A stretch of 32,000 nt of DNA from Acinetobacter wanghuae (GTDB lineage: Bacteria > Pseudomonadota > Gammaproteobacteria > Pseudomonadales > Moraxellaceae): NCBI RefSeq assembly GCF_009557235.1, contig NZ_CP045650.1:1800001-1832000 (forward strand), in the 5' to 3' direction. Positions within the stretch are counted from its first letter, which is position 1. Each line of letters starts with the position of its first letter. The translations under genes were made by a program, and so were the position numbers. Of the stretch, positions 13,435-22,278 are shown in pieces. The notes beneath the pieces are model-generated. The model searched no databases. It saw only the letters and a list, made by a program, of their open reading frames with translations, and was not told the DNA's origin.

Positions 13435-13929
13435 TTAGGCTATTTCAACTGCTCCAACCTGATGATAAGCCCGATTAAAATACACCAAACTTTCTTGTTG
13501 CTGACTTTGTTTAATTCCAACGACATGACACATCAATACACTATGTGTTCCAACTTGCTGAATATCTACAATCTCACAATCAAAACTGACCAAGGCATCT
13601 TCTAAAATCGGTGCGCCTGTTTCAAGTGTGCTCCAATCTGCCAGTTCAAAGCGTTGTTCGGCATTGAATTTGCTTGAGGCAAAAGCATTAGAAAGCTGTT
13701 CATGTTGAGTACTGAGTACATTTACCGCTAGTACTTTATTTTCAAGAAATTGCGCATGAGAACGAGAAGATTGATTCATACACACCAACAAAGTCGGTGG
13801 TGTATCAGTCACGCTACACACCGCAGATGCGGTAAATCCATGCATTCCCGCTTCACCCGCGGTGGTAATGACATTTACCGCTGTGCTTAGTAAAGACATC
13901 GCGTTTCTAAAGTCCGTTGCCTCAATCAT
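13435..13929 (-). CDS. flavin reductase-domain protein (HpaC/RutF-like NAD(P)H:flavin oxidoreductase)
   Basis: 164 aa. FRNAMSLLSTAVNVITT...GFTASAVCSVTDTPPTLLVCMN is the characteristic flavin-reductase fold opening. Co-directional with mesD, 100 nt downstream. Confidence 0.8.
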   Translation of the reverse strand: MIEATDFRNAMSLLSTAVNVITTAGEAGMHGFTASAVCSVTDTPPTLLVCMNQSSRSHAQFLENKVLAVNVLSTQHEQLSNAFASSKFNAEQRFELADWSTLETGAPILEDALVSFDCEIVDIQQVGTHSVLMCHVVGIKQSQQQESLVYFNRAYHQVGAVEIA

Positions 13930-14029: not shown

Positions 14030-15058
14030 TTAAGCACCCAACTCTTGACGCACAATTGCAGCACCTGCACTTAACGCATTTAGTTTGCCTTGTGCGACTT
14101 GACGAGATAATGGTGCCATCCCACAGTTGGTTGATGGATAAAGTTTATCTGCATCTACAAATTGCAGTGCTTTGCGTAATGTATGAGCGACTTCTTCAGG
14201 CGTTTCAATTTGATTGGTCGCCACATCAATCGCACCGACCATCACTTTTTTGCCACGAATGAGTTCAATCAAATCCATTGGAACACGGGAGTTTTGACAT
14301 TCGAGTGACACAATATCAATTTTAGATTGTTGCAGTTTGGGGAACGATTCTTCGTACTGACGCCATTCATTACCCAAAGTCTTTTTCCAATCGGTATTGG
14401 CTTGAATGCCATAGCCATAGCAAATATGCACCGCGGTTTCACATTTTAGACCTTCAAGTGCACGCTCTAAGGTTGCAATCCCCCAATCATTCACTTCATC
14501 AAAGAACACATTAAACGCAGGTTCATCAAACTGAATGATGTCGACCCCTGCTGCTTCAAGTTCTAAAGCTTCTTGGTTCAGAATTTTGGCAAATTCCCAC
14601 GCCAACTTTTCACGGCTTTTGTAATGACCATCATACAGCGTATCGATCATGGTCATAGGACCGGGCAATGCCCATTTAATCGGTTGCGTGGTTTGGCTAC
14701 GTAAGAACTTGGCATCATCGACAAAAACTGCTTTTTTACGAGACACTTCACCCACGACAGATGGCACACTGGCATCGTAACGGTTACGAATACGCATGGT
14801 TTCGCGCTTGTTAAAATCCACCCCTTCAAGATGTTCAATAAACGTGGTCACAAAGTGCTGACGGGTTTGTTCACCATCACTGACAATATCGATACCCGCC
14901 TGACGTTGTTCATGCAAAGACAGCTTTAATGCATCACGTTTTGCTTCTAAAAGTGCATCGCCTTCAAGTTTCCAAGGTGACCAAAGTTGTTCAGGTTCAG
15001 CAAGCCAAGCGGGTTTCGGTAAGCTGCCTGCTGTCGATGTTGGGAGTAAAAGTGCCAT
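14030..15058 (-). CDS. mesD: core (catalytic-domain-only) MetE-family methionine synthase, MesD type
   Basis: 342 aa, equal to a single Meth_synt_2-like domain. Contains SLPKPAWL, DIVSDGEQTRQHF, DIIQFDEPAF, VHICYGY and STNCGMAP (zinc-ligand contexts). Lies directly downstream of a DUF1852 gene. Confidence 0.85.
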   Translation of the reverse strand: MALLLPTSTAGSLPKPAWLAEPEQLWSPWKLEGDALLEAKRDALKLSLHEQRQAGIDIVSDGEQTRQHFVTTFIEHLEGVDFNKRETMRIRNRYDASVPSVVGEVSRKKAVFVDDAKFLRSQTTQPIKWALPGPMTMIDTLYDGHYKSREKLAWEFAKILNQEALELEAAGVDIIQFDEPAFNVFFDEVNDWGIATLERALEGLKCETAVHICYGYGIQANTDWKKTLGNEWRQYEESFPKLQQSKIDIVSLECQNSRVPMDLIELIRGKKVMVGAIDVATNQIETPEEVAHTLRKALQFVDADKLYPSTNCGMAPLSRQVAQGKLNALSAGAAIVRQELGA

Positions 15059-15109: not shown

Positions 15110-16105
15110 TTAAGCAGCATCTTTCTGAGCAGCGGTTACTTGAAAGTTAGCCGCCCACTCATCCAGAATGTCTTTATAGGGTTTGATAAAGTTTTCTTCT
15201 GTCCATTTGCCTTGTTTGACCGCCAACTGACCACGTTCAACACGGTCATAAACAATACGGGTGAGAGAATAATCGCCATAGCTTAAACTTGGTTGATAAA
15301 TCACGCCTGCAGGTGAATTTGTGTTGTAAATTTCAGGACGATAGATGCGTTGGAAACTTTCCATGGTCGCAATCGCACTGATCAACTCAAAATCAGTGTA
15401 GTCACGGAGTAAGTCGCCTGCACAGTAGAATGCCAGTGGTGCATTAGCATGTTTAGGCTTGAAATAACGAACACTGAGACCCATTTTTTTGAAATATTCA
15501 TCGGTACGTGAATCATCATTATTGGTGTATTCTGCACCCAATACAGGATGGGTATTCGCAGTACGGTAGTACGTTTTAGTGGTGGAAACACTTAGGCAAA
15601 TGACAGGCTGTTTTTTAAACTCAGCTTTAAACACCGCTGAATTAATAAGATGTAGATATAGCTTGCCATGCAAGTCACCAAAGTCTTCGGGCTTTTCATC
15701 CGTCTTATAACCCAATGTTGGCAAGACCACACTAAAGTCATAATCACGCACATACGATGAGAAGCTATTGCCAATCATGCCTTCAATACGTTCACCTGTT
15801 TGATGGTCGATGACGGTGCTTTTCAGTGTTTCGATGAACGGGAAGGTTTCACCATTGCCCTCAATATCAATTTCAGCCGAAATAATGTCAATTTCAAGTG
15901 AATAACGATCACCTTTTGGATTATCAACAGTGGCCAAACTATTAAAGCGATTATTGATCATTGCCAGAGTCCGACGCAGATTTTCTTGACGGCTTTCACC
16001 ACGTGCCAAATTGGCAAAGTTAGTTGTTAAACGAGTGTTATTCGCTGGCGCGTAATGCTCATCAAAGCGAATGCGTTTAATTGAACATGCAAATTTCTGA
16101 CTCAT
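15110..16105 (-). CDS. mesX: DUF1852-family protein, MesX
   Basis: 331 aa. The size, sequence style and conserved pairing immediately upstream of a core MetE-like gene match MesX (DUF1852) as described by Price et al. 2021. Family call is from memory and context. Confidence 0.75.
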   Translation of the reverse strand: MSQKFACSIKRIRFDEHYAPANNTRLTTNFANLARGESRQENLRRTLAMINNRFNSLATVDNPKGDRYSLEIDIISAEIDIEGNGETFPFIETLKSTVIDHQTGERIEGMIGNSFSSYVRDYDFSVVLPTLGYKTDEKPEDFGDLHGKLYLHLINSAVFKAEFKKQPVICLSVSTTKTYYRTANTHPVLGAEYTNNDDSRTDEYFKKMGLSVRYFKPKHANAPLAFYCAGDLLRDYTDFELISAIATMESFQRIYRPEIYNTNSPAGVIYQPSLSYGDYSLTRIVYDRVERGQLAVKQGKWTEENFIKPYKDILDEWAANFQVTAAQKDAA

Positions 16106-16177: not shown

Positions 16178-16220
16178 TGAGTAAAACGATATAAATTCAA
16201 TTAAAGATGAGTAAAATTCA
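16178..16220 (-). promoter_or_regulatory. candidate MetR boxes upstream of mesX
   Basis: Direct repeat ATGAGTAAAA at 16177-16186 and 16207-16216. The second forms TGAGTAAAATTCA (16208-16220), one mismatch from the E. coli MetR consensus TGAA-N5-TTCA. Confidence 0.35.
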
Positions 16221-17693: not shown

Positions 17694-17881
17694 AAATCTC
17701 CCATTTTTTGAAATTGAATTGTTTGTCTGCTCAGCATGATCTCCCAATCGGTGCTGTACATTGCTATTACTGTTCTTTTTGCAAAATTAATTTAAATCTC
17801 CTGTCGGTCAGGGGCTCGAATCATGTTGATTGTTAAAACGTGATTTGGCTTTGACTGCTTGTAAAACCTACGTTGAAAACA

Positions 17882-19114
17882 ATGTCTTCCCCACAAATTT
17901 CTAAACTCACCTTTGCCACGTTGTTGTTTCCTTTGGCATTGGTTTTATTTGAGTTCGCTGTCTACTTAGGCAACGATTTAATTCAACCCGCAATGCTGGG
18001 TGTTACACGTGATTTTGGTGTCAGCAGCGCTTGGGCGCCATCGTCTATGTCGTTTTATCTTTTGGGCGGTGGTTGTATTGCTTGGCTGATGGGTCCGTTG
18101 TCGGATCGTATTGGACGCAAAAAAGTCTTGCTCGCTGGTGCACTATTCTTTGCGGTGATGTGCATTGCCATTTTATTCACACAGAATATTCAAAGTTTCT
18201 TAACCTTACGTTTCTTACAAGGCATGGGTTTAACTGTGATTAGTGCGGTGGGTTATGCTGCGGTACAAGAAAACTTTGAAGAACGCACTGCAATTAAAGT
18301 CATGGCGATTATGGGTAATATGACTTTATTTGCACCATTGCTTGGGCCTTTAGTCGGTTCACTGTTGATTGATCAAGTGTCTTGGCATTGGGGCTTTATT
18401 GGTATTGCCTTCTTAGCGGTATTGGGTTGGTTGGGTTTAAAAATTGCTATGCCGGCAGATCAAAAAGCCAATCTAGTGCAAAAGCCAATGAACAGTATTT
18501 TTGCTGACTTTAAGAAAGTTTTTAAAAATAAACAATTTGTTGTCATGACGCTTGCTCTACCCCTAGCATGTTTACCTATTATGCTGTGGATTGCACTTTC
18601 ACCTGTCATGTTGGTGGAAAACTTAGGCTTTAGTGGCATGCAATATGGTCTAGCACAAATCCCAGTTTTGGGCGCATTGATTTTGGGTAGCGTGATTTTG
18701 GTCAAAATCGTGGATAAATATCCACTGGGTCAAACGATTTTATTCGGTCTACCGACCATGCTTGTCGGTGCATTGATTATTCTGGCTGGTCTGTTTATGG
18801 CGGATTATTTCGTCTGGACATTGATTATTGGTATGACCATTATGAGCTTTGGTGAAGGCATTTGTTTCTCAGTACTGTATCGTTTAGCCATGATGTCATC
18901 AGATGTATCTAAAGGAACGGTTGCCTCTGCAATGTCGATGATCATGATGTTCACCAACTTCATTGTGCTTGAATTATCACGCATGTTGTTTGAATCGTAT
19001 GCATTGGTGGCATTCAGCTTATGTTGTTTAGCATTGATCTTACTGTGGTTCACTTTGCCACGCGCAATGCTGAAAAAAGTGATGCAAGAACGTCAAGCCA
19101 AACAACAGTTCTAA
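17882..19114 (+). CDS. craA: MFS drug:H+ antiporter, MdfA/CraA family (chloramphenicol/multidrug efflux type)
   Basis: LFPLALVLFEFAVYLGNDLIQPAML, WAPSSMSFYLLGG, GPLSDRIGRKKVLL and LRFLQGMGL match remembered CraA/MdfA sequence. The tracked ORF starts at TTG 17873; ATG 17882 is preferred. Confidence 0.8.
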   Translation: MSSPQISKLTFATLLFPLALVLFEFAVYLGNDLIQPAMLGVTRDFGVSSAWAPSSMSFYLLGGGCIAWLMGPLSDRIGRKKVLLAGALFFAVMCIAILFTQNIQSFLTLRFLQGMGLTVISAVGYAAVQENFEERTAIKVMAIMGNMTLFAPLLGPLVGSLLIDQVSWHWGFIGIAFLAVLGWLGLKIAMPADQKANLVQKPMNSIFADFKKVFKNKQFVVMTLALPLACLPIMLWIALSPVMLVENLGFSGMQYGLAQIPVLGALILGSVILVKIVDKYPLGQTILFGLPTMLVGALIILAGLFMADYFVWTLIIGMTIMSFGEGICFSVLYRLAMMSSDVSKGTVASAMSMIMMFTNFIVLELSRMLFESYALVAFSLCCLALILLWFTLPRAMLKKVMQERQAKQQF

Positions 19115-19137
19115 CTCTTTAGCTTAGGCGAAAAGAA

Positions 19138-19169
19138 AAGGCGCGATTCATCTCAATTGCGCCTTTTTT
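19138..19169. terminator. bidirectional rho-independent terminator
   Basis: AAGGCGCGATT-catctc-AATTGCGCCTT-T5, between convergent craA and the MTHFR-like gene. Confidence 0.8.
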
Positions 19170-19195
19170 GTCTCTGTGTTTTCAAAAATTAAGAC

Positions 19196-20614
19196 TTAAC
19201 CCACAGCATCGGTATACCAATTTTTCCACGAACTGGTGCCACGAACATCAATGGGTACAGTCGGAATCAATTTCTTTTTAAGAATGTCAGTTTGATGAAC
19301 TGCTTTCGCTAAGCGTGCTTTAACCGAGTGAATACATTCACGATCACCAAATTCACAGCGGTCTAAACTCGTACCACCACAGGGTCCATTGGCCAAACCT
19401 TTCGGACAGGTTTCTGGACAGATGTATAGCGTATCGCCCAAACGGCATTGACCACAACTTTCACAGCCAAGTACAGCATGTTTACTGATAAATTCTGTTT
19501 TGAGTAATGCTTGTGCAGCCGCTTTTCCTTGCCAAAATTTGGATTGAAAAATAAAACGCCCCACGCCTTTACCCACTCTGGAATCAAAAATGACATCATG
19601 CATCAGATGTAAATGCTGATATTTTAAAATGTCACGTTTACTCGCAAGGCGTGAATATGAGGTCAACTCAGGATAAAATTCTTGCCCTGTTTTGACCTGC
19701 CACAGTGTATTCCAACGCTGTTCAAGTTCGCTTAAATTAAGATGGCGATACTGTTCAATATAACCCTCTAAACGCATTTGTTCTTCAGGTTGATGACACG
19801 CTGATAAATGAATGCCTGCAAAGCCCAAATGCTGACAGATCAGAATCTGCAACGCACAACGCTCATAAACACGATCCGTCAATCCTGCCGCTTTTTCTTC
19901 TTGTAATAGGTTGAAAATATGCGGGGTAATGACAATGCCTGCCACTTGCTGCTTCAACATGAAATTCGCACGACCAAACGTCAGTGGCATCACACACGCC
20001 AGGATTTTTTGCGTATACGCATGTTCGTTTAAAAAGGCTTTCGCTTGTTTTAATGCACTTAAGTCATAGCCCAATTGAGTAATAATATAGTCAGTGCCTG
20101 CTTTAATTTTTTTATGCAGTTTTAAATATTGTGCATCACGTTCCGCTTCGGCATATTTAAAAGGATTAAATGCCACGCCAATACAAAAGCCCTCTTCCTG
20201 TTTCGCAGCCACCACAGCATTCACGGATTCTAAATAACGGGTACGAGGCAGTATACCCTCGCCATTTTGATGCGATTTGAGTTTATCGCCTGTAAGCAAG
20301 AGTAAATTCTGCTGTCCTAGCGTTTTCGCACGTTTTAAAAATTGTTCAAAGTCCGCAATATCTCGACCTTTTCCTGCAAAGTGTAAGACTTTTTCAATGT
20401 CTTTCGGATAAGCCTTTGCCGCCAAAATCGGTGCTAAATCATCATCTGCATGCACCCGATCCGCTAAGGTCATTAATGCCGGATAACCTGCAAATGTATG
20501 ACGTACGGGCAGAATCTCTTTTTGAGTGCACAGATATTCCACCAAAACACAAAATTGATTTTTCGCAAAATAAGTTACAAGTTGAGACATACTGGGAGTG
20601 ATCCAAAGGATCAA
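19196..20614 (-). CDS. MTHFR (MetF)-like TIM-barrel protein fused to a MetV/MTHFR_C-type Cys-rich domain
   Basis: The N-terminal two-thirds is MetF-like (FAGKGRD..., LLLLTGDK, DYIITQLGYD). The C-terminus reads CESCGQCRLGDTLYICPETCPKGLANGPCGGTSLDRCEFGDRECIH, the CP..CPKG..NGPCGG signature of the MTHFR C-terminal/MetV zinc-ribbon family. The start is ambiguous (TTG 20614 or ATG 20590) and neither has a clear SD. Confidence 0.75.
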   Translation of the reverse strand: MILWITPSMSQLVTYFAKNQFCVLVEYLCTQKEILPVRHTFAGYPALMTLADRVHADDDLAPILAAKAYPKDIEKVLHFAGKGRDIADFEQFLKRAKTLGQQNLLLLTGDKLKSHQNGEGILPRTRYLESVNAVVAAKQEEGFCIGVAFNPFKYAEAERDAQYLKLHKKIKAGTDYIITQLGYDLSALKQAKAFLNEHAYTQKILACVMPLTFGRANFMLKQQVAGIVITPHIFNLLQEEKAAGLTDRVYERCALQILICQHLGFAGIHLSACHQPEEQMRLEGYIEQYRHLNLSELEQRWNTLWQVKTGQEFYPELTSYSRLASKRDILKYQHLHLMHDVIFDSRVGKGVGRFIFQSKFWQGKAAAQALLKTEFISKHAVLGCESCGQCRLGDTLYICPETCPKGLANGPCGGTSLDRCEFGDRECIHSVKARLAKAVHQTDILKKKLIPTVPIDVRGTSSWKNWYTDAVG

Positions 20615-20708
20615 AAAGGAAAAACTAAATTATAATCAAAATGGACTTAAACTGCATCTGATGCTGCCCACATGGACAGCATCAACATCTTTTCGTTAAA
20701 CGAGAAAA

Positions 20709-20978
20709 TTAGCGCCATATTTGCTGGGCAATCTCATTCATCAGTTTTAGTTTTTTCCATTGGGTATCATATGAAATACGATTGCCCTCTTCCATTGATG
20801 CAAAACCACTTTGTAGACACAGACCCAATTGTGCGAGTGGCAGATAATTTGCTGCCTGTTCAATTTGTGCAATCACTTTGGCTTTATCTTCTAGAGTTTC
20901 AAGCTTGGTTGAAATCAGTCCTAAAAATACTTCTGCCTGTCGATTGGTTTCTGAAGCTGTACTAGAGGGATTTAAACC
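20709..20978 (-). pseudogene. 5'-truncated remnant of a MetE-family (YxjG-like, B12-independent) methyltransferase
   Basis: Not in the ORF track. The minus-strand frame reads ...ETNRQAEVFLGLISTKLETLEDKAKVIAQIEQAANYLPLAQLGLCLQSGFASMEEGNRISYDTQWKKLKLMNEIAQQIWR*. This is the conserved C-terminal roughly 85 residues of MetE-like proteins. The frame closes at a TAG at 20979-20981 and no N-terminal part exists upstream. Confidence 0.7.
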
Positions 20979-20998
20979 CTATCAGGTTGTATTAAATA

Positions 20999-21031
20999 TA
21001 TAGGCTAGAGGAGTAATTCCTCTAGCCTATA
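20999..21031 (-). terminator. perfect 14-bp stem hairpin downstream of the porin gene
   Basis: TATAGGCTAGAGGA-gtaat-TCCTCTAGCCTATA, followed on the minus strand by the AT-rich sequence TATTTAATAC, so the T-run is not canonical. Confidence 0.5.
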
Positions 21032-21066
21032 GTTATTTTGTTATTAATTTTTTAATATATGAAAAT

Positions 21067-22278
21067 CTAGAAATCGTACTTTGCCATGATCTCTATACGG
21101 TTATCATTTCCGGTCTTACCTTCAACTGTCTCACGTTTACCATAGACATATTCCATACCAAACGTAATTGGTTTGACTGGGTTATACATGACATTTAACC
21201 AACCTTGTTGTAGATGATCATTGCCATTAGCATTGTTACCATCATAAATCACAGAGCCGTAACCTAAAGTGCTCCTAATTTGGGGAGCAAATTTATAGGT
21301 TGCACCTAATGTGAATGCATCAAAATCAATTAGTTCAATATTATTACCATGCTGTATATAGCGTTTATTATCAGATGTAGCCAATAAAAACTTATTATCT
21401 CCTGATACATGCGAGTAATTAGCATTCAGAATCAGCTGATTAACAGGCTTATAGTTTACCCCTAAGCCAATCCCCCAGCCTAACTCTGTCTCATCGTCCA
21501 AATCACGTACCCGTACTTCTTGTAAAAGTCCTCGTGCGGTTACTAGTCCAGCACCTTCAGCAAATTTATGACTCAATTTTGCTGTAGCAGCAGGTAATCT
21601 GTTTTCATCATTACCTTTTTCTAATGCGACAAAATACTGTGTATTATTATTTAATTTATCCGTATATCGCACCATTGGCGTACGTGTCGTGCCTCCTCCA
21701 AGTGGAGTATTAAAATCCAACATTTCAGGAGAAGTTTCAGTCGATAGGAAAGTTGATGTCGTTTGCCCGATTAACCAATTGTTATAAGTCATATAGACAT
21801 GACGTAATCTGACAGTATCTTTATCGGAACCACCACGGAAATCGAGTTCAACTTTACCACCAATGTCTGCATTTTGAATTGGGGCCTTAAAATCCAAGCC
21901 TATACGGGTAGTTGTTAATGTCGAATCCAAACGATCTTCAGTAGATTTTTTATTGGGATCTCCTTCAAGTGCTACGCTATTGATGCTATTAAACATCCCT
22001 TTAGCACCTTCGAATTGGTAAGCGACATCCCCCCGAATAAAACCATATAAGCTGATTTCTGCACCAGATTTCGACTGCCATTTATTTACTGTTGGCAGTT
22101 TCTGATCCTGCTTCGTCTCTCTATGTGTCTCAGAGATTTGTTGAATCAGTAACATTTGTCTGAGTTCAGCAATTTCTGATTTTAATTTCTCGATTTCTGT
22201 AGTTACTGTTTGATCAGCATATGCTGTAGAAATAACCGTACTACCCAAAAGCATAAAAGCTACATTATAAAATTTCAT
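21067..22278 (-). CDS. DcaP-family outer-membrane porin
   Basis: Signal peptide (…TAYA/DQ). N-terminal coiled coil (EIEKLKSEIAELRQMLL). Beta-barrel body with LRHVYMTYNNWLIGQTTSTFLS and terminal KYDF. These match the DcaP architecture known from Acinetobacter. Confidence 0.8.
   Translation of the reverse strand: MKFYNVAFMLLGSTVISTAYADQTVTTEIEKLKSEIAELRQMLLIQQISETHRETKQDQKLPTVNKWQSKSGAEISLYGFIRGDVAYQFEGAKGMFNSINSVALEGDPNKKSTEDRLDSTLTTTRIGLDFKAPIQNADIGGKVELDFRGGSDKDTVRLRHVYMTYNNWLIGQTTSTFLSTETSPEMLDFNTPLGGGTTRTPMVRYTDKLNNNTQYFVALEKGNDENRLPAATAKLSHKFAEGAGLVTARGLLQEVRVRDLDDETELGWGIGLGVNYKPVNQLILNANYSHVSGDNKFLLATSDNKRYIQHGNNIELIDFDAFTLGATYKFAPQIRSTLGYGSVIYDGNNANGNDHLQQGWLNVMYNPVKPITFGMEYVYGKRETVEGKTGNDNRIEIMAKYDF

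Follow-up and report, generated by a model that had tools for sequence, protein, structure and literature searches.

We analysed a window of 32,000 nucleotides from Acinetobacter wanghuae (the whole stretch at positions 1,800,001 to 1,832,000 of contig NZ_CP045650.1), in which one minus-strand gene joins a methylenetetrahydrofolate reductase (MTHFR) barrel to a Cys-rich module of the MetV type (Table 1). With moderate confidence we read its product as a specialised single-chain iron-sulfur (Fe-S)/flavin methylene-tetrahydrofolate (methylene-THF) reductase of the MetFV type that serves half-size MetE enzymes in making methionine without B12. The evidence lies in the domains and conserved residues of the protein and in the genes beside which its family recurs; we infer the cofactors, the electron donor, the substrate, the direction of the reaction and the physical or metabolic coupling to the methyltransferases.

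Domain architecture and family of the fusion protein

An earlier note on this DNA had described a 472-amino-acid (aa) protein with a MetF-like N-terminus and a Cys-rich C-terminus, and the frame is present exactly so, occupying 19196..20614 of the minus strand with 472 aa counted from a TTG at 20614 and the Cys-rich C-terminal peptide included. Homologues are ~464 aa long and all begin MSxL, so translation most likely starts at the ATG at 20590, for a product of 464 aa. The Pfam check that had been proposed placed both domains above their curated cut-offs on one chain, which bears out the suggested fused MetF-MetV type. PF02219 (MTHFR) scored 68.9 bits against a cut-off of 24, with residues 71-242 aligned to positions 69-240 of the 287-position profile, and PF12225 (MTHFR_C/DUF5981) scored 68.8 bits against a cut-off of 23 at residues 372-450. 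Relatives of the protein match PF02219 over profile positions 2-236. When the protein was scanned with NCBIfam, similarity to the true MetF models appeared below threshold only.

An AlphaFold2 model built with 22 homologues as input (pTM 0.81) has a confident barrel, for which the top Foldseek matches in the PDB are all methylene-THF reductases (Thermus, Escherichia coli, Haemophilus, yeast and human) at probability 1.0 and a TM score of ~0.7 on the target; profile searches and hhalign agree with this assignment. In an alignment of the fusion family with canonical MetF, including that of this genome, and with MetV-partnered MetF, residues E18, G101-D102 and Q172 are invariant. We take E18, D102 and Q172 to correspond to Glu28, Asp120 and Gln183 in our assumed numbering of E. 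coli MetF, presumably its catalytic and folate-binding residues. Alignment and hhalign further show that the motif at the Asp is LTGD in both the fusion and MetV-partnered MetF, as opposed to LRGD in canonical MetF. The eight Cys of the C-terminal module are invariant across the fusion family, and these Cys and the CPxTCPK..NGPCGG core are equally invariant when the comparison takes in MetV-like proteins of ~150 aa that stand alone in a different family of the order. By analogy, the module probably carries two [4Fe-4S] clusters. The MTHFR fold, the retained residues, the LTGD motif, the eight Cys and the precedent of Clostridium ljungdahlii MetFV together mean that the window protein is best described as a single-chain MetFV-type reductase with putative cofactors and electron donor of that type. 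Classical MetFV consists of two separate subunits from adjacent genes; as a single 464-aa polypeptide, the window protein is therefore a fused variant and not a classical member.

Two corrections to the earlier note are in place: the fusion is not peculiar to this genome, and an Fe-S or zinc module in an aerobe is not in itself odd. The fusion is a known, annotated family of ~464 aa that is common in Acinetobacter and uncharacterised; its usual annotation is 'MTHFR C-terminal domain-containing protein', and its member ACIAD1783 was already mentioned by Price et al. 2021 (PMC7857596). A word-indexed search returned 792 homologues, with both domains in every one of the 120 matches listed and with a 2447-member A. 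pittii cluster, Psychrobacter and Cellvibrio among the matches; an exhaustive search returned 1000. These numbers are far above what chance would give. As to the module, a different family of the order also has MetV-like genes, in stand-alone form. The fusion is carried by 12 of 24 congeneric genomes, by 6 of 401 genomes of the order (the window's own included) and by 2 of 401 genomes in a phylum-wide sample. Since this last sample gave no new carriers, linkage was assessed within this order.

ACIAD1783 of A. baylyi has been reported to be distantly related to MetF, with a Pfam match from position 70 onward and 39% identity to PP_4638 of Pseudomonas putida; Price et al. 2021 judged it to have 'probably another function' (PMC7857596). 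Matched by this published description and not by alignment, ACIAD1783 is very probably the orthologue of the window protein. None of the papers found in our literature searches assigns the family a function or reports its PRK06520 or mesXD contexts, both described below. The genome of the window has MetH and, elsewhere, a canonical MetF that scores 266 bits as opposed to 69 bits for the fusion, and canonical MetF is also present in all five of the other carrier genomes checked. The best explanation is that the fusion is a second, specialised paralogue beside a housekeeping NAD(P)H-dependent MetF.

The survey of the family brought up several variants. Relatives of ~40% identity and 909-957 aa (P0126, P0127, P0129, P0136) or 698 aa (P0128) have N-terminal extensions before the MTHFR and MetV domains; those of P0126 and P0136 hold cyclic-nucleotide-binding and ABC-ATPase-like domains, and those of P0127, P0129 (both weak, below the Pfam cut-off) and P0128 a cyclic-nucleotide-binding match only. 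No fusion of the protein to a MetE domain was found, the 900-957-aa relatives bearing these cyclic-nucleotide-binding/ABC-ATPase-like domains instead. The Phaeocystis 'MetE-fusion', considered as a relative, was set aside as a loose parallel only, in which a core MetE is joined to a different oxidoreductase (PMC10861871). In family f23 of the order a MetV-like reading frame is present in 10 of 12 genomes. At four loci (L124-L127, in genomes G221, G046, G099 and G253) a separate MetV-like gene of ~150 aa immediately precedes a MetF-like gene of 314-318 aa, which is followed in all four by a purU-like gene (seen from its end sequence only). Three large genes (~350, 640-660 and 600 aa), one beginning with a Cys-rich motif, precede the MetV-like gene at L124 and L125. 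The fusion gene of L123 (G073:C1:1306933-1308363) has an internal TAA, and that of L097, from a metagenome-assembled genome (MAG), is cut short, with 80 aa read from the match start; both are probable pseudogenes or assembly errors. Acinetobacter-like copies, 63-67% identical and with Acinetobacter-like neighbours, occur in MAGs named 'Candidatus Kurthia equi' (L080) and 'Bacteroidaceae' (L093). They nest within the Acinetobacter clade of the tree and probably reflect binning contamination, not transfer.

Linkage to two kinds of half-size methionine synthase gene

Neighbourhoods were counted over 80 named loci out of ~409 genomic loci, and subclades were placed with a quick tree. The first kind of partner is a MetE-like gene that, where intact (as in A. 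kyonggiensis), belongs to PRK06520, an NCBIfam 'subfamily' of ~368 aa with kinship to YxjG/YxjH; the YxjG/YxjH literature searched gives no biochemical function for a half-size MetE of this type. A PRK06520 gene lies directly upstream of the fusion, on the same strand and with a gap of ~125 base pairs (bp), in ~10 of the 80 loci, and one gene away, with thiM between, in two further loci (~12 of 80 altogether). These pairs fall in at least four Acinetobacter subclades, that of the window included. The earlier note had placed the fusion once downstream of a now-truncated MetE-family gene, and this proved right, since the remnant is real and the pairing is kept in those subclades. The neighbour survey that it had called for gave a divided answer, in that the pairing recurs yet is confined to those ~12 loci, the fusion usually standing alone behind its own promoter box.

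Of 11 assessable loci, eight have a cobalamin riboswitch (RF00174, 50-75 bits) upstream of the PRK06520 gene, in some cases separated from it by a gene for an outer-membrane protein; none was detected in eight loci lacking the PRK06520 gene. B12 riboswitches typically turn off B12-independent substitutes, and the position of this one ahead of the PRK06520 gene marks that gene as a back-up for MetH. The window is without the riboswitch because that upstream region is deleted.

The fusion gene probably has its own promoter, as is suggested by a TATAAT found 35-57 nucleotides (nt) before the ATG in 66 of the 80 loci, compared with 1.2% of random windows of the same length. Within the PRK06520-fusion gap the TATAAT ~40 nt before the ATG is invariant in aligned relatives, and a conserved hairpin of 11-13 bp reaches z values of -2.9 to -4.6 in three of four sequences. 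A simple sigma-70 scan gave no promoter in 18900-21200, the TATAAT having emerged from the alignment of relatives. Among RNA data no run contained half of the sampled words of the gene; short contigs from RNA libraries cover parts of it at 95-98% identity, which establishes neither transcription nor this strain.

The second kind of partner is mesD, with mesX. The earlier note had included mesXD in a one-carbon/methionine theme, and the pair does lie 3.1 kb away, but the connection is more than thematic, as no other linkage of the family is conserved as widely as adjacency to mesXD. All four full-length homologues outside the genus in the order sample, which are 36-40% identical, have a GC content of 56-61% and come from two other families, immediately adjoin mesX-mesD. 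Their layouts are divergent at L120 and L123, convergent at L121, and a same-strand run of mesX, mesD, flavin reductase and fusion at L122. A Cellvibrio MAG and a clade that branches early within Acinetobacter repeat the divergent mesX layout (L091, L098, L099, L101), and a tight same-strand mesXD layout is seen at L038 and L042. Overall, mesXD lies within 7 kb of the fusion in 25 of the 80 loci, and MesX is present in six of six fusion carriers of the order sample versus 49 of its 401 genomes overall. Because many of these genomes are close kin, the differing orientations across families are a stronger argument for the link than the counts.

MetR-type boxes lie upstream of mesX, including within the shared divergent intergenic regions, which is suggestive only; a MetR-box search found none upstream of the fusion gene in the window. 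One conserved box upstream of mesX, TGAGTRAAATTCA, at 16208 in the window and at corresponding sites in L098, L099, L101 and L042, is MetR-like with one mismatch from TGAA-N5-TTCA.

A number of observations concern the same neighbourhoods. In many Acinetobacter loci (for example L016:7257-7790(+) and L032:9392-10060(-)) the fusion converges on a downstream gene for QueH, an epoxyqueuosine reductase that works without B12, and this gene often lies between the fusion and mesXD. In a study of A. baumannii, B12 represses mesX, mesD, QueH and metF, with mesX, mesD and QueH among the genes most strongly affected (PMC12892962); QueH, mesX and mesD together look like a cluster of B12-sparing genes. 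In Acinetobacter sp. ANC 3781 the interval from mesX to QueH contains a fluoride riboswitch (L016:6634-6700(+), 55 bits). A. lwoffii and A. idrijaensis (L059-L078) have, ~177 bp ahead of the fusion and on its strand, 43 aa from the C-terminal end of a divergent second MesX (63-70% identical), which hints at an older mesX-adjacent layout. A. bohemicus ANC 3994 has two paralogous copies of the fusion on one contig, L025 in a MetE-like context and L038 beside mesXD, and A. calcoaceticus strains differ between an nrtR-context type (L036/L046/L096) and a mesX-divergent type (L098).

The recurrence of the fusion beside two kinds of half-size B12-independent methionine synthase gene suggests that it may supply their methyl group. 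The protein consists of an N-terminal TIM barrel, predicted to bind flavin and with its Glu, Asp and Gln intact, followed by a helical linker and the C-terminal 8-Cys MetV module. In the mechanism that we propose, the Fe-S module would receive electrons from the neighbouring flavin reductase or from some small redox protein, NAD(P)H not being the direct donor, and methylene-THF (or a related pterin) would be reduced to the methyl form. The methyl form would in turn serve a homocysteine methyltransferase of half-size MetE type, namely PRK06520 in genomes that have it and possibly MesD. If the fusion is active in this genome, it would be left with MesX/MesD, at a distance of 3 kb, or with MetH, reached through free methyl-THF, as candidate partners. 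A more far-reaching form of the proposal, which we consider quite improbable, casts the fusion as an overlooked partner of half-size ('core') MetE-type synthases. Its barrel would dock face-to-face on the MesD or PRK06520 barrel, replace the missing N-terminal MetE barrel and hand over a methyl group freshly made by Fe-S/flavin reduction, so that MesD would have a second source of methyl groups, needing neither MesX nor oxygen, and methionine a fifth route of synthesis.

Table 1. Features of the window around the fusion gene (positions within the window)
Feature	Position	Strand	Remarks
Flavin reductase	13435..13929	-	PF01613; last gene of the mesX-mesD unit
mesD	14030..15058	-	Meth_synt_2; NCBIfam NF006589, 695 bits; only Meth_synt_2 gene left in the genome
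mesX	15110..16105	-	PF08908, 535 bits; 3.1 kb downstream of the fusion, same strand
MFS transporter	17873..19114	+	Convergent neighbour; synteny shared with closest relatives
MTHFR + MetV-like fusion coding sequence	19196..20590	-	464 aa from ATG at 20590; open frame reaches TTG at 20614
MetV-type module PF12225	19265..19501	-	Eight invariant Cys, C-x2-C-x2-C-x8-CP-x2-CPK-x7-C-x7-C-x6-C
PF02219 MTHFR match core	19886..20404	-	Whole TIM barrel at ~residues 1-265; holds E18, D102 and Q172
TATAAT box (perfect)	20629..20634	-	44 nt upstream of ATG; invariant in seven aligned relatives
Weak -35, ATGCAG	20652-20657	-	17 nt upstream of TATAAT
Conserved 11-bp hairpin	20659..20684	-	Between MetE-like gene stop and promoter box; no clean U-tract after it
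Remnant of PRK06520-type half-size MetE	20709..20978	-	Last ~77-89 codons; homology to relatives' DNA stops at ~20940
Bidirectional terminator, 15-bp stem	20999..21031	.	Strong; end of DcaP porin gene, just past the truncation junction

Weighing the alternative readings

Several observations weigh against a reductase role in methionine synthesis. The Cys-rich stretch has low confidence in the AlphaFold2 model, as expected because the metal is missing from it. Many of the loci and genomes are close kin, the Acinetobacter loci above all, so the counts overstate independence. In most Acinetobacter loci neither PRK06520 nor mesXD adjoins the fusion, and in the A. calcoaceticus-baumannii group it lies beside nrtR with neither of them near. 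The riboswitch is tied to the fusion gene by adjacency only, and any control of that gene by it is putative, because the fusion's own conserved promoter box and the hairpin separate the fusion gene from the PRK06520 gene. The fusion is missing from 43 of the 49 MesX-positive genomes of the order sample. PP_4638 showed no phenotype in 101 fitness experiments, and mesD and mesX alone rescue E. coli metE and metF deletions (PMC7857596), so the fusion is not required by that system and MesD needs no methyl-THF. Among the B12-responsive entries listed in the accessible part of the A. baumannii study, no gene is named 'MTHFR C-terminal domain', which is a weak negative (PMC12892962).

The main rival, though an unlikely one, is that the fusion is a non-folate accessory of MesX/MesD chemistry, which might for example make, recycle or detoxify the methyl donor or its by-product. 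Its barrel could then serve another pterin- or flavin-like substrate and its Fe-S module could exchange electrons with the flavin reductase of the operon. Adjacency to mesXD as the most widely conserved context, seen in three orientations across three families of the order (the same-strand run at L122 among them), would fit such a role, as would the presence of MesX in every carrier of the order sample, the MetR-type boxes in shared divergent intergenic regions and the fact that the methyl donor of MesD is unknown (PMC7857596). Against it, the catalytic residues of folate reductases are fully conserved, MesD and MesX function in E. coli without the fusion protein, and the fusion family pairs with a different MetE-type gene too.

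It is also conceivable, and in our view quite unlikely, that the window's copy is a functionless and not-yet-decayed leftover, recently orphaned from a broken MetE-like/reductase pair. The partner is indeed truncated and the DNA upstream replaced: the 270-nt remnant frame matches by tblastn, at 76% identity over 88 aa, the C-terminal end of an intact A. kyonggiensis gene of 381 aa, and as an 89-aa product it went undetected by Pfam alone. Contigs of related strains match the window to ~20940 and then diverge, and other contigs match from ~20943 on, so the MetE-like gene was cut at ~20940 by a rearrangement absent from those relatives. There is no intact PRK06520 copy elsewhere in the genome, MesD being its sole Meth_synt_2 protein, and the broken fusion copies of G073 (internal TAA) and L097 (cut short) add to this case. 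The reductase gene itself shows no decay, however. It differs at one of 189 near-invariant columns, within the family's normal range of 0-13; its entire open frame, the TATAAT and the hairpin survive; and the fusion stands alone and intact in most Acinetobacter species.

The earlier note had left open whether the methyl group serves homocysteine methylation or comes from demethylation of a substrate. In the oxidative direction, which it thus raised and which we consider very unlikely, methyl-THF would be converted to methylene-THF, regenerating THF in demethylation, and the MetE-like enzyme would be a methyl-to-THF transferase. MetF genes do accompany THF-dependent demethylases in some aerobes. 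A type III MetFV is also reported to be capable of methyl-THF oxidation if its product is drawn off (PMC8760232). The riboswitch before the MetE-like gene (8 of 11 loci) and the linkage to MesD, a proven methionine synthase, point instead to methionine synthesis under B12 shortage, and it is for this riboswitch and the mesXD linkage that we favour biosynthesis. Genes for demethylases, transporters or catabolism show no conserved association with the fusion in the loci surveyed. The methylation half of the note's suggestion is thus favoured and catabolic demethylation disfavoured. A sensor or regulator of one-carbon or redox status acting through flavin and Fe-S groups, as the cyclic-nucleotide-binding and ABC-ATPase-like domains of the ~40% identical relatives might suggest, is hardly credible for a protein with conserved catalytic residues whose 464-aa form contains no DNA-binding or signalling output domain in the Pfam scan.

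The readings are separable by experiment only; the function is made testable by the linkage to both kinds of half-size methionine synthase, by the riboswitch and by the fusion's own probable promoter. The linkage to PRK06520 and the riboswitch, the mesX-mesD adjacency in three orientations and the fusion's own conserved TATAAT box appear unreported in the papers searched. According to Price et al., A. baylyi cannot make B12 (PMC7857596); in Acinetobacter without B12 synthesis, B12-independent methionine routes therefore decide growth without external B12 or methionine. MesX/MesD is the main such route, and a reductase that recurs beside mesXD and beside a second, riboswitch-linked half-size MetE offers a cheap genetic and biochemical handle on its methyl donor. 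If our preferred reading of a MetFV-type reductase is true, the fusion would be the first Fe-S dependent MetFV-type methylene-THF reductase with a role in an aerobe and the first single-chain one, and a function would be assigned to a widely annotated, uncharacterised family found across the A. calcoaceticus-baumannii group.

Comparison with known systems

The closest known system is the type II MetFV of acetogens. Purified C. ljungdahlii MetFV has FMN in MetF and ~7.4 Fe, with two [4Fe-4S] clusters credited to MetV, and it accepts reduced ferredoxin or flavodoxin and leaves NAD(P)H unused (PMC8515935, PMC8760232). The window protein shares with it the MTHFR barrel, the LTGD motif and the PF12225 module with eight Cys that fit two predicted [4Fe-4S] clusters. 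Acetogen MetFV is made of two chains, whereas the window protein is one, with MetV C-terminal after a ~100-residue helical linker. The acetogen enzyme also stands in a Wood-Ljungdahl context, whereas the host of the window is a strict aerobe and the neighbours in the window are mesXD, the MFS transporter, the porin and the MetE-like remnant, with no Wood-Ljungdahl or acetogenic genes nearby. Unlike acetogen MetFV, moreover, the fusion is a second copy beside canonical MetF, and its genomic partners are methionine-synthase genes. The E. coli-type MetF, which uses NAD(P)H and FAD, shares the TIM-barrel fold (Foldseek probability 1.0) and the equated Glu, Asp and Gln, but is only ~14-17% identical to the fusion, which has LTGD for LRGD, an extra linker and a predicted Fe-S module. 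By analogy with MetFV, the fusion probably cannot use NAD(P)H directly, in contrast to the E. coli type.

The PF02219 match of ACIAD1783/PP_4638 begins near profile position 70, the same pattern as in the window protein (69-240); the paper that describes them makes no mention of a MetV module, of mesXD adjacency or of a riboswitch-linked MetE-like partner (PMC7857596). The oxygen-dependent and folate-independent MesX-MesD system is a recurrent neighbour of the fusion, sometimes on the same strand with a flavin reductase and in the window 3 kb off, but is sufficient without it in E. coli complementation, and most MesX-positive genomes are without the fusion. Lastly, the usual B12-independent back-up of MetH is a metE under a cobalamin riboswitch, and the riboswitch before the PRK06520 gene in eight relatives is arranged likewise. 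Unlike that metE, PRK06520 is half-size, with no N-terminal barrel, and the gene after it encodes a dedicated reductase paralogue, which in the window survives where the riboswitch region has been deleted.

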